Sequence record: PV874203.1 | Length of the DNA: 64,000 bases | Source of the DNA: a phage | Direction: 5' to 3' (one strand) | Shown here: one piece after another, positions 13,349 to 61,755 of the stretch | How the letters are laid out: every line of letters starts with the position of its first letter | Numbering within the stretch: position 1 is the stretch's first letter | Made by a program: the position numbers and the translations under genes | Notes under the pieces: generated by a model | The model's input: the letters and a program-made list of their open reading frames with translations, nothing else | The model's database searches: none | What the model was told of the DNA's origin: nothing

Positions 13349-13357
13349 ATAATGTAT
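13349..13357 (+). promoter_or_regulatory. TAATGTATA promoter-like motif (candidate phage-specific promoter)
   Basis: TAATGTATATAGGGGG about 40 nt upstream of the 1488-aa gene; the same motif recurs upstream of other genes on both strands. Confidence 0.45.
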
Positions 13358-20487: not shown

Positions 20488-22024
<1,537 letters not shown>

Positions 22025-22272
22025 AATGCATCTCTTTATAAACAGTTTCCGTGTTCTTCTTCCAGTTAGATAAACTGGTAAGAACTCTCTGAGCAACTTC
22101 ATCAGCTGCTCTATTTCTTTCAATCTCTAACTCTTGTTGATGCTTTTCTTTATCCAGATTGTTACTGTCTGTTCTGTACTCATTAAACTTCATACCACCA
22201 AAGAATACAAGAGCTGAGAAAACGATAAACCCTAAGTTATCACTTAACGTGTTTTGCATGTTGTCTCCAACG

Positions 22273-22297
22273 AAAAAAAAGCCACCCGAAGGTGGCT
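22273..22297 (-). terminator. rho-independent terminator (minus strand)
   Basis: Minus strand reads AGCCACC-TTCG-GGTGGCT followed by TTTTTTTT, directly after the SSB gene. Confidence 0.7.
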
Positions 22298-22318
22298 AAG
22301 CTATAACAAGGAGAGTTA

Positions 22319-23065
22319 TTAGAATGGGCTATCGTTGTCGTCTTCGTAAGTAGAAGCAGGCTCTTTATCAATCGTAGGGATTGAAGGAGTAGCTTCTTTC
22401 TGTTCTGTTTCAGAAGCACGAGTAATTTCACGACCAGCCAGAGGCATGTTCTTAGCATCATTAGCTTGAGTAAGCAGGTTGCGCTGGAACGGGAACATCA
22501 ATTGATAGGATGCTACGTTCTCATCGGTTTCAGCATATGGTTCGAAGAATACCAGAGGACTACGAGCTTCACCAACTGCTGCACGATATTTGGTTGGGAT
22601 TGGAGAAATGGTTTTGATGGAGTTTTTAACTTCACCGGCTTTGTTAGTGTAAGAGTTAACCAGAATGTTAACAGGCTGGCCTAACAGAACATCCTTGAAC
22701 CAAGACAGATCACCTTTCAGTGCTTGAATACTTGGGTCAATCATCTTGCAGAGATCAAGAATACCAGAGTTCTTAGCTCGTGGGTTTACATCATAGCTCT
22801 TGAACTGGCAAGCCGGACGTGGTTCTAATGCCTTACCATCGGAATCTTTACCAGTAGCATCAACACCAATCAGCTCGAAAGCCAAATCCATACGGAAAGC
22901 TGGATTCTTAGGAGTTACTGCTTTGGTCTTCGGGTCAATCCAAGGGTCTCGATTGTGAACACCCAAACCTACTACACGAACGATGCGTGCTTCGTACTCA
23001 CCATCAGGGATGATGTCGTAGTTGGATTTACGGGAAGAAGTTGCGATAGTTGGAATCATAGACAT
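22319..23065 (-). CDS. single-stranded DNA-binding protein
   Basis: 248 aa with acidic C-terminal tail ending ...YEDDNDSPF, the hallmark of SSB C-termini; lies in the replication block. Confidence 0.6.
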   Translation of the reverse strand: MSMIPTIATSSRKSNYDIIPDGEYEARIVRVVGLGVHNRDPWIDPKTKAVTPKNPAFRMDLAFELIGVDATGKDSDGKALEPRPACQFKSYDVNPRAKNSGILDLCKMIDPSIQALKGDLSWFKDVLLGQPVNILVNSYTNKAGEVKNSIKTISPIPTKYRAAVGEARSPLVFFEPYAETDENVASYQLMFPFQRNLLTQANDAKNMPLAGREITRASETEQKEATPSIPTIDKEPASTYEDDNDSPF

Positions 23066-23125
23066 ATTTTAATTTCCTTATTTAATTTTGAAAGATTGTT
23101 GCTCTCTTTGAGCGGTTATGTATAA

Positions 23126-23134
23126 TATACATTA
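23126..23134 (-). promoter_or_regulatory. TAATGTATA promoter-like motif (minus strand)
   Basis: Plus TATACATTA is the reverse complement of TAATGTATA, about 60 nt upstream of the SSB gene. Confidence 0.4.
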
Positions 23135-23186
23135 TAACTTTTGTAAGATAAGTATCATTTTATTGGTAGTAGATACTCACTAATGG

Positions 23187-23195
23187 TAATGTATA
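23187..23195 (+). promoter_or_regulatory. TAATGTATA promoter-like motif (plus strand) facing an ORF-free region
   Basis: GGTAATGTATATAAGG on the plus strand inside the 23066..23499 intergenic region. Confidence 0.35.
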
Positions 23196-23629
23196 TAAGG
23201 TAGAGTTAGAGAATAACTCTTGCACGGGACTGACGACGATAAGGCGCAGACGACAATCTCTCATAAGTTTGTAAGAAATTGAGAGACTACCGGAAGGGCA
23301 GGAGCCACCTGCGAGATAAAAATAGAGAATTAAGGAATCCTTGATTTAGGTTGTAGGGACTCCTAGGGACTTTGATTCTCTATTTAAAAGAATATTAATT
23401 ACTTACTACCTAAATAATTAACTAGCTTACTTAAACCAAATTCAAGAATAATAGATAAAAAGATTATTCCTAAGAAAGCTAAGAAGTAAAGGATATAAGT
23501 TACCATTCAAGTAAACCTTTAAAATTAGATTTTTCTACTATTCTCTGATAATGAAGATTAGAATCAGCTTGTTTCTTTAACATCTCATTATACCTATCTC
23601 TGATAGAGTCTTTATAAACTACAGGTTCT

Positions 23630-24133
23630 TTAAATAATGAGATCTTGTTCTTTTCTTCTTTCATCGAAAACCTTCCTAATCTCTTGCAGAGAAACAGCTT
23701 TATAATTAATTTGCTCCATTGATGTACAGAAATATCTCCAATCATCAATTACATGGTTATGAGTATGAGCATAAATATTAAACTTCCCTCTCATCTCATC
23801 AGAGTGAATAGGAATATGAGTTACCCAAAACTCTTTATATTTAAAGTCACCAGAGATTCTACGGAAGACTTTCATCATATCAGGGAGAAGTTCTAATCTG
23901 TCATGATTTCCTAAGACCAGATGCTTCTCTCCTCTAACTTCAGCGATGATATCAAGGGCATACTTTTCAAACACCCAATCACCTGTAAAGAAAACTTTAT
24001 CACGTTTGGTTACGTGGTCAAAAGCAGCCAGAATTGCTTTGTCATGCTCTTCAATGTTTTTAAATTGCTTACGAAAACTACAGATGTTGCGATGGCCTAA
24101 GTGACCATCTCCTGCAAAATAAACTTCAGCCAT
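23630..24133 (-). CDS. calcineurin-like metallophosphoesterase
   Basis: GDGHLGH, TGDWV and LGNHD motifs. Confidence 0.6.
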   Translation of the reverse strand: MAEVYFAGDGHLGHRNICSFRKQFKNIEEHDKAILAAFDHVTKRDKVFFTGDWVFEKYALDIIAEVRGEKHLVLGNHDRLELLPDMMKVFRRISGDFKYKEFWVTHIPIHSDEMRGKFNIYAHTHNHVIDDWRYFCTSMEQINYKAVSLQEIRKVFDERRKEQDLII

Positions 24134-24142
24134 AAAGACCTC

Positions 24143-24358
24143 TTAAATCAAGCATCCATCACAGGTTAAGTCACCTAATAGGGACAGGGAGAGTAATCTG
24201 GATTGTTCATCGCTGTACAGTTGATCAATCTCTTCTTTGAGTTTTGCCAATTCCATAAAATTAATAAGCTGTCCATGTTCTAGACAGTCTGTTTTCAATA
24301 TGAATAAAACATCAGCGTCTTTTGAATCTTCACTTGAGTATTTATCAATGTATTCCAT
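24143..24358 (-). CDS. hypothetical protein
   Basis: 71-aa ORF in a tightly packed array. Confidence 0.4.
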   Translation of the reverse strand: MEYIDKYSSEDSKDADVLFILKTDCLEHGQLINFMELAKLKEEIDQLYSDEQSRLLSLSLLGDLTCDGCLI

Positions 24359-24360
24359 TT

Positions 24361-24582
24361 TTATGCCACATCTCCTTGTTTATTGTTAATAACATCCAGT
24401 GCTGTATATGCTTTACCTGTTCCTAAGTATTCTAGAACTGGAGGACTTTTCTTCTCCTCAGCGACTACATAAGGTGTGATCTTTCCTTTCAGTACAGCCT
24501 GAGATGCTTTAGCGCTGTCTTCAGATGTGTGAACAGTAGTAAACCCTTTCTTTCCAATTCTATAAGTGTGAATCCAAATCAT
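24361..24582 (-). CDS. hypothetical protein
   Basis: 73-aa ORF, 2-nt spacing to neighbours. Confidence 0.4.
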   Translation of the reverse strand: MIWIHTYRIGKKGFTTVHTSEDSAKASQAVLKGKITPYVVAEEKKSPPVLEYLGTGKAYTALDVINNKQGDVA

Positions 24583-24594
24583 TTAATTTCCTTA

Positions 24595-25005
24595 TTAACG
24601 TATAACCAGAGGCTCTTCAGAGTACACAGGAGCGGCTATTTCTACAGGAGGTGCTGCCCTAAGGTCATTAAGTCTTACACCCTTCAGCATACCATCTAGG
24701 TGGTCCTTTTTGGGGATTCCAACAGGGAAATCGTCAATCCAGATATCTACAAAGAAACCTAACTGTCGACAAACCTCATCCTTCTGCACACCATTACAAA
24801 AGATGATAGGAATTTGCAAACACTCTGCATCAATCTTAATGTCGTGATTATCATATCCATTAGGCTCTGCAAAGCGATAAGTTACAAAACGTACATCATA
24901 ACCTTTAGCTTGCATTAATGTCACCACAGACCGCCACAGCTCCTTATCTGAGGTGTAAGTATCATCATAATCTAAACCGATATTCATGTCAAGTCCTTTA
25001 GACAA
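24595..25005 (-). CDS. hypothetical protein
   Basis: 136-aa ORF. Confidence 0.45.
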   Translation of the reverse strand: MSKGLDMNIGLDYDDTYTSDKELWRSVVTLMQAKGYDVRFVTYRFAEPNGYDNHDIKIDAECLQIPIIFCNGVQKDEVCRQLGFFVDIWIDDFPVGIPKKDHLDGMLKGVRLNDLRAAPPVEIAAPVYSEEPLVIR

Positions 25006-26895: not shown

Positions 26896-28587
26896 ATGCA
26901 TATCAATTACCTTAGCACAACGAACCTTATCTCTCTCAATCCACTTGTTAAGGAACATCATAGCATATTTCATAACAACAGCACCAGCACATTGCAGGAG
27001 AGTGTTAAGTGCTTTATGAACCATAACCTTACCAGTGGCATCTCGTCTCATTGTAATCTTACGACCATCAACACCAATCAAGTACCCTTGAGCAGCTTTC
27101 TCTGTCATACGATCAATGAGGATTGCAATACATGGGTTCTCTGCCAAGAAACGTGCTCGCATCACTGAACCTTCGTCAGCCCCACCACCTACAATTGAAC
27201 CGAGCTTAGCATCACCAGCACCATAGTTGAATGCGTAGATAAATGTCTTAGCGTTGTCACGAGTAGGAAGACCAGCAAGTTTCTGGTTGTGGGAGTGTAT
27301 ATCACCTTCAAGGAGAATATCACGATACATAATAGCAGAAGCTAAACCACGTTCTGCCAGAGCTTTCTTAGCTGGATTGTTTTCTTCTATTGCTTCAGCA
27401 AGCATATCCCTACACTCTTTAATGAGGTAGTGTGCAAGCATACGCAACTCTAACCCAGAACCATCATACCCCAAGAATACTTCTTTACCAGCGGGTATGT
27501 AATATTTGTAAGCACCTACAGGTTTGTCTTTCTTCCCCGGCTTACCTTTCTCATAAATTACGTTAGTACCTTTTCGTATATAACAACCATCAGGAACAAC
27601 GTTAGTAATAACGAAAGGACGAGAGTGATCATCATCTGAGTTATAGTCAGATTCAAACAAACTGCGACACTCATGACCAAACAAACCACGGGAGGGAATA
27701 TTAACCACGATACGATGTTTGAATCGAAAAGTCGGCGTAGCGCAGCTGTTAGCTTCTGCCGAAAGTTTACCATCTTCGCGCTCCTTTGCTATAAGTCCAC
27801 TAATAAGACCTAGCCTGTGAGCCGCTACAACGCGTCTCTTAAGCAAACTTCCGACACTCCCTAGCTCACCCCCTAACCCTTCTTCAAGAGTCTCCTCGAG
27901 GTTTGTAGGGGCTGTAGGCCACTTGTTTGAGGTAGCTAGTGCTATCTTAATCTCATCAAAAGTAATAGGTCTACGTCGGTTAGGATTTAAACCTAAACCA
28001 AACACATAAGCCTTCATGTAGTTCTTAGTTTTAAACCGAAAATGCTTCTCTAAGAACTTTCTAATATCAGCGTCAACCATCTCGGCTGTCTGCTTCTGTT
28101 TAGCATTACCTCGCATCCAAGCTGAATACCATGCTTGGTATGTTCCATACTTTCGCATATCTTTCTTGATTTCAAAAGTATTCCAAGGTTTCTTTGATAC
28201 ATTAAACTCTGGAGGAAGAAAACCCTCATCCATAAGGGCTTCTTTAACTCGGGCATCTTTCGATGGGTCAAAGGCTACGTACTCTACACAGGTGAATGCT
28301 CCACCAATGTCTTCTCTCTTAAGTCCAACCCTATCACAATAGGCTTGAGGCCACTTCTGTAAAGCTCCAGACTTCTTAAATGGCTTCATATAAGTAGAGC
28401 CATCTAATCTCATCTTAGGTAAGAGAGGAATCAGTTCTTTGTCAATATTAACAATAATCTCTTTAAGGAGGTGAACATACCACCGAGCATTTCTTCGGTT
28501 GAAACTCACTCCGTGCTTCGCTTGCTTAGAGATTATATCAGCGACAGTCATCTCTGTCAAAAATGGGAGAGCGTCCGGGTTGCTCAC
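26866..28587 (-). CDS. DNA polymerase, family A (T7 gp5-like), polymerase domain; ORF runs into the intron
   Basis: RDNAKTFIYAFNYGAGDAKLG matches motif B of T7-type polymerases; ORF ends before motif C, which is supplied by 26136..26288. If spliced, the exon ends near 26896. Confidence 0.8.
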   Translation of the reverse strand: MSNPDALPFLTEMTVADIISKQAKHGVSFNRRNARWYVHLLKEIIVNIDKELIPLLPKMRLDGSTYMKPFKKSGALQKWPQAYCDRVGLKREDIGGAFTCVEYVAFDPSKDARVKEALMDEGFLPPEFNVSKKPWNTFEIKKDMRKYGTYQAWYSAWMRGNAKQKQTAEMVDADIRKFLEKHFRFKTKNYMKAYVFGLGLNPNRRRPITFDEIKIALATSNKWPTAPTNLEETLEEGLGGELGSVGSLLKRRVVAAHRLGLISGLIAKEREDGKLSAEANSCATPTFRFKHRIVVNIPSRGLFGHECRSLFESDYNSDDDHSRPFVITNVVPDGCYIRKGTNVIYEKGKPGKKDKPVGAYKYYIPAGKEVFLGYDGSGLELRMLAHYLIKECRDMLAEAIEENNPAKKALAERGLASAIMYRDILLEGDIHSHNQKLAGLPTRDNAKTFIYAFNYGAGDAKLGSIVGGGADEGSVMRARFLAENPCIAILIDRMTEKAAQGYLIGVDGRKITMRRDATGKVMVHKALNTLLQCAGAVVMKYAMMFLNKWIERDKVRCAKVIDMHKLHCACKSW

Positions 28588-61727: not shown

Positions 61728-61755
61728 AGTATACATTAATCAGTGAGGGATGCAA
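61728..61755 (-). promoter_or_regulatory. sigma70-like promoter overlapping a TAATGTATA motif (minus strand)
   Basis: Minus strand TTGCAT-16 nt-TATACT; the -10 overlaps TAATGTATA (plus 61730..61738). Confidence 0.4.

Follow-up and report, generated by a model that had tools for sequence, protein, structure and literature searches.

The OOP RNA of phage lambda is a 77-nt, sigma-70-dependent transcript that overlaps the coding region of cII, and whether it acts as a primer or as an antisense regulator was long debated. The primary origin of phage T7 and the origins oriF and oriG of phage T4 depend on transcription and carry an AT-rich unwinding region directly after the promoter. Non-coding RNAs of lytic phages have also been found by transcriptomics, as in PA5oct (PMC7318152). 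In phiEco32, host RNA polymerase carrying the phage sigma factor gp36 reads promoters with a single published consensus element, tAATGTAtA, and starts transcription 6-8 nt 3' of it (PMC8948821). In the literature searched, six such promoters are listed, namely P6, P13, P26, P40, P58 and P68 (PMC8948821 Table S3; PMC4331800; SU10 Table S2), and one of them, P68, has been verified experimentally and is transcribed in vitro by the gp36 holoenzyme (PMC12276001). The 2025 cryo-EM structure of the gp36 open complex on P68 revealed that the -35 region is read as well, through contacts of the gp36 C-terminal domain with -37G and -34A, and also resolved the contacts from -14 to -11 (PMC12276001).

The locus described here lies in a 64,000-nucleotide stretch of phage DNA (PV874203.1; hereafter the window) and comprises a plus-strand copy of the gp36 element and the structured sequence 3' of it. 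Its predicted product resembles lambda OOP in being a small RNA opposite to an operon, beside replication genes, with a terminal hairpin close to where a converging gene ends. Unlike OOP, the RNA, if it ends at the long hairpin termed H4 below, would stop 13 nt short of the stop codon of that gene (gene 41), the RNA element is kept in phages where gene 41 is absent, and there is no sequence or Rfam relationship between the two. With the T7 primary origin and T4 oriF and oriG, the locus shares a phage-specific promoter without a dedicated gene, a position in a replication-gene region and AT-rich DNA nearby; it differs from them in the structured, GC-richer and sequence-invariant segment directly 3' of the promoter. 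Finally, like the PA5oct-type RNAs, it would be a conserved intergenic RNA whose promoter follows the phage's own transcription programme, but it has no homology to any described family and is a computational prediction.

The locus and its neighbouring genes

The 801 bases around the locus match 99 phage records, all of them phiEco32-like coliphages and the best being MN05 (99.3%), and its annotated relatives place the locus in the genus Kuravirus, subfamily Gordonclarkvirinae. The neighbouring features are as follows.

22297-22280, minus strand: strong canonical intrinsic terminator (AGCCACC-TTCG-GGTGGCT plus T7), directly 3' of gene 40
22319-23065, minus strand: homologue of phi32_40 (gene 40, SSB-like), the gene served by P40
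23399-23506, minus strand: homologue of phi32_41 (gene 41), a 35-aa hydrophobic peptide with its stop codon 13 nt beyond H4
23630-24133, minus strand: metallophosphoesterase

An earlier, sequence-only reading had described a 430-bp gap between a phosphatase gene and an SSB gene. The ORF-free stretch is in fact 333 bp long (23066-23398), and its upper neighbour is the phi32_41 homologue, followed by a homologue of phi32_42 and only then by the phosphoesterase gene. The statements of that reading that all neighbouring genes lie on the minus strand and that no plus-strand ORF exists did hold, with zero plus-strand ORFs of at least 30 aa found in 23125-23753. The SSB identity is putative: one GenBank record labels the phi32_40 homologue "ssDNA-binding protein", and its C-terminus is acidic with Phe as the last residue, whereas Pfam and PDB sequence searches with the protein (22319-23065) returned no match.

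P40, gene 40 and the terminator at 22297-22280(-) together look like a monocistronic unit. The same terminator accounts for a spurious RyhB-like Rfam match. In an alignment of 16 relatives, the predicted gene-40 mRNA begins with ~25 nt that never vary (AACCGCTCAAAGAGAGCAACAATC) and that hold, at 23101-23113(-), a 4-bp hairpin (GCUC-AAAGA-GAGC), and it is possible that this P40 leader is a regulatory leader for the SSB-like gene. On the other side of the gap, the gene-41 product is strongly hydrophobic (MVTYILYFLAFLGIIFLSIILEFGLSKLVNYLGSK), and its gene is deleted or truncated in Paul/ECBP2/AnnaHegner-type phages. Two sigma-70-like promoters, at 24992(-) and 24924(-), feed the upstream operon toward the gap. 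Farther away, at 28532-28560(-), TTGACA and TATAAT separated by 17 nt and accompanied by an upstream TG form a perfect sigma-70 consensus promoter (12/12 matches).

The gap also stands out in composition. As the earlier reading had noted, it is locally GC-richer (0.46 at 23200-23299 vs. 0.24-0.28 on either flank). The plus strand of the segment is purine-rich while the flanking genes show the opposite bias. The ~190 nt right after the plus-strand promoter are the GC-richest stretch in the region; GC content is 0.46 and then 0.40 over the first 150 nt 3' of the promoter, and AT-rich DNA (0.24) begins only after 23390.

A probable plus-strand gp36 promoter facing the gene cluster

The window holds five exact copies of TAATGTATA, against 0.84 expected. 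Three of these are known promoters as judged by their flanks, at 13350(+) (P26), 30150(-) (P58) and 23126(-) (P40), while P68 reads AAATGTATA and is found at 34578(-). The copy at 23187, which the earlier reading had singled out correctly, lies outside the published set of six gp36 promoters. That reading had overlooked P40 on the minus strand. A further exact copy at 61730-61738(-), on the gene strand of the early-gene region, is also outside the six published promoters; it is without a P68-type -35 box, and may be a chance match or an additional unlisted promoter. The promoter features of the gap are the following.

23126-23134, minus strand: P40 middle promoter, TAATGTATA, matching the published SU10/phiEco32 P40, with a predicted start near 23119
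23162-23175, plus strand: -35-type box ATTGGTAGTAGATA, with G23165 at -37 and A23168 at -34
23187-23195, plus strand: gp36 promoter element TAATGTATA at -15 to -7, an exact match to tAATGTAtA (PMC8948821)
23202, plus strand: predicted transcription start, A23202 (range 23201-23203), from the published 6-8 nt spacing and the -11G numbering

The plus-strand promoter has the two-part architecture of P68. Box ATTGGTAGTAGATA and its 11-nt spacing are identical at P68 (34578(-)) in the same genome, as is the 10-nt core AATGTATATA of the -10 element, and the position of the box is such that the -37G and -34A contacts of gp36 would be supplied by G23165 and A23168. Like H1 of the transcript predicted here (below), P68 transcripts also start with a short hairpin closed by a 7-nt loop. 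Unlike P68 and P40, the plus-strand promoter opposes the gene cluster and has no ORF 3' of it.

Comparison among relatives points in the same direction. Of the 29 related loci collected from GenBank, IMG/VR and metagenomes, all but one retain both box and element (28/29), and every one retains the box core TGGTAGTA (29/29; in ES17-like loci GGTAGTATATC replaces GGTAGTAGATA), while the 11-nt spacer between them differs at almost every position. The exception is a metagenomic locus (L036, contig ERZ1034915 NODE-75) that reads TAATATATA, with a contact base changed (-11G to A); the rest of its RNA region is intact, and the change could be a natural or an assembly variant. In a pattern scan of IMG/VR, the bipartite motif came up at about two sites per Kuravirus genome, a number that agrees with P68 and the plus-strand site taken together. 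On this basis, the plus-strand promoter is very likely functional and would be read by the gp36 holoenzyme, and we infer its activity and exact start site from the sequence features given above. The earlier proposal of a promoter that fires against the direction of the genes into structured, ORF-free sequence is thus well supported computationally, the full P68-like architecture being conserved.

P40 is conserved in all relatives and lies 52 bp from the plus-strand TAATGTATA, so that the two promoters stand back to back (divergent). In ES17-like phages (ES17 itself, 1750-1893, and the loci L007 and L032-L035) an insertion of ~128 bp separates the two divergent gp36 promoters and carries an annotated 47-aa minus-strand ORF; since such an insertion is tolerated, no fixed distance between the promoters appears to be needed. 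In the literature searched, the plus-strand promoter and its RNA are undescribed, with the reservation that Pavlova 2012 or Savalia 2008 may mention them.

The predicted transcript is modular and its 5' hairpin covaries

The following elements were delineated on the plus strand 3' of the promoter.

23202-23220, plus strand: H1, 5'-terminal 6-bp hairpin (AGAGTT / loop AGAGAAT / AACTCT), starting at +1
23221-23291, plus strand: variable middle module, type A, containing hairpins at 23230-23249 and 23257-23286
23292-23389, plus strand: near-invariant 3' block of 98 nt, containing H3 and H4
23298-23312, plus strand: H3 hairpin (GCAGG / AGCCA / CCTGC), stem invariant, sole variable site the loop C/A (AGMCA)
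23320-23385, plus strand: H4, long irregular hairpin with lower-stem arms at 23320-23330 and 23375-23385

The internal complementarity and repeats noticed earlier are all present in these elements: TCTCTCA (23257-23263) is complementary to TGAGAGA (23280-23286), TAGAGAAT occurs at 23207 and 23323, and TAGGGACT occurs twice within H4, at 23354-23361 and 23364-23371.

Evidence for an RNA-level role comes from H1. In the alignment of the predicted transcript, which comprises 21 distinct versions, two of the six H1 pairs show compensatory changes (UA<->GC; CG/UA/AU) and a further pair is divided between GC (11 sequences) and GU (10). Since the minus strand would have a C-A mismatch in place of G-U, H1 should be a helix of the plus-strand RNA, and its covariation points to selection on the RNA product. 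The support expected from covariation across related phages was therefore obtained for H1, in a plus-strand-specific manner, and for one pair of the type A module, but not for H3 and H4, whose 27 pairs are all invariant or nearly so and consequently provide no covariation evidence.

The middle module exists in two unrelated types. The window, MN05, ES17 and ECBP2 have type A, while about two-thirds of the relatives examined, including phiEco32 and most others, have type B, which is 26 nt shorter. Within type A, one compensatory change (CUG/CAG to CCG/CGG) in ECBP2 and one U-A to U-G change in L007 were read from the sequences. H1 and module types assort independently, with SR02 combining the H1 of the window with module B and ES17 combining the H1 of phiEco32 with module A, which suggests that recombination has exchanged parts of the RNA gene, with breakpoints at the invariant TTGCA and where the 3' block begins.

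Folding energies support structure without assigning it to a single strand in every comparison. The segment 23201-23400 folds better than its shuffles on both strands (z of -3.1 for plus and -5.0 for minus), as does the 3' block alone (-3.3 and -4.0, respectively); for the whole transcript, 13/13 variants tested favored the plus strand over the minus strand, by 3.5-10.5 kcal/mol. Rfam cmscan over 22000-25000 on both strands (E<=10) gave no match within 23066-23400, and ARAGORN found no tRNA or tmRNA in the gap. The RNA was also considered as a small-ORF message and this was rejected, since no reading frame is conserved between the module types, which differ by 26 nt, and indels of 1-2 nt sit in the block. 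A trans-target search for shared or inverted k-mers across the window returned eight 11-mers vs. ~5 expected, i.e., chance level (one match, near a late promoter, falls inside a coding region), and duplexes predicted with the gene-40 leader were no better than shuffles. A role as a CsrA sponge was set aside, the enrichment of GGA motifs being weak (6 vs. ~3 expected, counted by eye).

The 3' block is near-invariant across three genera

Each of the 99 GenBank records, from the genera Kuravirus, Suseptimavirus and Nieuwekanaalvirus, contains the 3' block once (99/99), and none among the matches listed annotates a feature there; the segment is thus conserved in related phages. Identity of the block to that of the window remains at 93-100% in the most divergent relatives, while gene 40 of the same phages shows 80-84% identity over its first 279 nt and a different gene has taken the place of the downstream one. 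Part of the high identity in 4E8 and SU7, where the neighbouring gene 41 is also ~98% identical, may stem from mosaic recombination rather than selection. Gene 41 is absent in Paul, ECBP2, OliverMaurmann, AnnaHegner, E20-1, TH42 and LAMP, all of which keep the promoter and the block.

Conservation ends exactly at the end of H4. The lower stem of H4 consists of 11 Watson-Crick pairs, which G-U pairs lengthen to 15 bp on the plus strand, and the indels of the relatives (AAU/AAAU/AAAC, a 2-nt deletion and a 1-nt deletion) are all accommodated by predicted loops or bulges; variable sites of the block likewise lie in predicted loops. After H4, the plus-strand tail (UUUAAAA or UUAAAA) is a poor terminator, while the conserved minus-strand tract UUUUUAUCU is a better one. 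On the minus strand, H4 itself lies 13 nt past the gene-41 stop and just ahead of P40. A terminator scan of both strands (loop of 3-8 nt, at least 3 GC pairs) called H4 on neither, owing to its long interior, and detected no canonical plus-strand terminator in the more than 2.5 kb that follow H4. With the inner part of H4 regarded as the hairpin, the 3' arm UUCUCUAUUU could act as a U-rich tract. H4 may be a bidirectional stop that also ends the converging upstream operon. Because conservation stops there, the 3' end of the plus-strand RNA is predicted at H4, and any overlap with gene 41 depends on this predicted end.

The element appears to be confined to the Kuravirus-like phages. No copies were found outside this group in INPHARED or IMG/VR, and no homologue in E. 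coli genomes (blastn, E<=1) or in a pattern scan of 185,579 species genomes. It is missing from the distant relatives 7-11, Proteus P59 and three metagenomic loci (L012-L014), in which no more than ~75-150 nt lie upstream of the gene-40 homologue. The three metagenomic loci (~1360-1450; 82-90-kb contigs; gene-40 homologue 67-69% identical) have a different conserved palindromic element (…AAGCATATAGCTTAGCTTAGCTTTGATATGCTAGCTTTGCTAGATGCTT…) upstream of that gene and are without TAATGTATA.

A model for the locus and its alternatives

We favor, with moderate confidence, the hypothesis that the gap holds a gp36-dependent, middle-class transcription unit that makes a structured non-coding RNA, functional in its invariant 3' domain. 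That is, the gap would be an independent, unannotated transcription unit with a promoter (23162-23195(+)) of the same class as P68, from which host RNA polymerase with gp36 would start near 23202 and transcribe in the direction opposite to all neighbouring genes. An RNA of ~185 nt would result here, and one of ~156-161 nt with the shorter module (range about 156-187 nt). H1 at the 5' terminus would probably protect the 5' end, the middle module would have been swapped between phage lineages, and the near-invariant 3' domain (H3 and the long H4) is taken as the functional part, with the RNA probably ending or being processed at H4. Under this model the RNA might be a stable middle-phase regulator whose 3' domain acts on a conserved partner, either a protein or an RNA; we infer both its 3' end and its mode of action. 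Among the small RNA, antisense regulator and transcription-activated origin proposed by the earlier reading, a small RNA fits the data best.

Alternatively, the block might mainly be a minus-strand terminator and/or an RNase III-type processing site that ends the upstream operon ahead of P40, an explanation that we regard as rather unlikely. The plus-strand promoter would then only fire head-on, insulating gene 40 from read-through or making antisense RNA, and the plus-strand RNA would have no function of its own. The minus-strand position of H4, between the gene-41 stop and P40 with the conserved UUUUUAUCU behind it, the better z-score of the block on the minus strand and the two sigma-70-like promoters at 24992(-) and 24924(-) that drive transcription toward the block all agree with this explanation. 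The arrangement of lower stem, internal loop and upper stem, which is the layout of T7 RNase III sites, could likewise be read as resembling a phage processing site. However, the covariation of H1 and its plus-only G-U pairing imply selection on the plus-strand RNA beyond the act of transcription, neither the invariant 43-nt interior nor the invariant H3 is needed for a terminator, and the terminator scan called H4 on neither strand. Another possibility, that the plus-strand motif arose by chance or is a relic without function, appears highly improbable to us: close to one exact 9-mer is indeed expected per window, and at least one other exact copy (61730(-)) exists outside the published set, but a 14-nt box together with the 10-nt core AATGTATATA at the P68 spacing is implausible by chance, and box and core are conserved while spacer and flanks vary.

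It is also conceivable, though in our view improbable, that the locus is a transcription-activated replication origin, at which, in the manner of the T7 and T4 origins, the phage's replication machinery would rely on a gp36-dependent transcript for duplex opening or priming, with the invariant block as the recognition region (DNA or RNA-DNA hybrid) and the AT-rich flanks as the unwinding regions. Such an origin would explain an orphan promoter without a gene that adjoins an SSB-like gene and has flanks of 24-28% GC; the divergent P40 and plus-strand promoters could in addition drive negative supercoiling into the AT-rich spacer, and a site at the DNA level would be in keeping with the inverted and direct repeats and the 100 bp of invariance of the block. 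On the other hand, the promoter is followed by the GC-richest ~190 nt rather than by an AT-rich unwinding element, and there is no GC-skew inflection at the locus: the skew, inspected as an origin signal, only follows gene orientation, and its cumulative curve turns at ~18 kb (the late/early boundary). Further, the two AGGGACT repeats vary among relatives in spacing (10 to 9 bp) and sequence, and a 1-nt indel lies at the centre of the AAGG..CCTT palindrome, so that hairpin loops fit better than protein-binding DNA, and the covariation of H1 points toward a stable RNA. In fst/RNAII and bsrG/SR4-type systems, convergent genes share a hairpin, and by analogy the RNA might be the antisense antitoxin of a type I toxin-antitoxin-like pair with the convergent gene 41 and a shared terminator. 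Gene 41 does encode a small hydrophobic peptide and the convergent layout with a shared hairpin is similar, but phages that have no gene 41 keep the promoter and the block, and for this reason we reject such a pair as the general function of the element and give it only a very slight chance in any form.

Significance

PhiEco32 is a reference system for phage-encoded sigma factors. If the model favored here is correct, the plus-strand site would be a seventh gp36 promoter, and the phage sigma factor would also drive a non-coding product. This promoter is the best match to the two-part architecture and yet points the "wrong" way, and across three genera the RNA segment behind it has changed less than the genes next to it. 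Some 100 deposited genomes would have their annotation corrected accordingly. The element is also a candidate for a replication origin or for a regulator of the early-to-middle switch. In a bolder form, which we consider unlikely, it would be the replication origin of phiEco32-like phages (with a gp36-directed primer or R-loop) or would encode an RNA decoy that ties up a conserved protein of host or phage. If the origin or the decoy reading were true, the locus would represent an undescribed RNA-based layer of control in a well-studied model of transcription.
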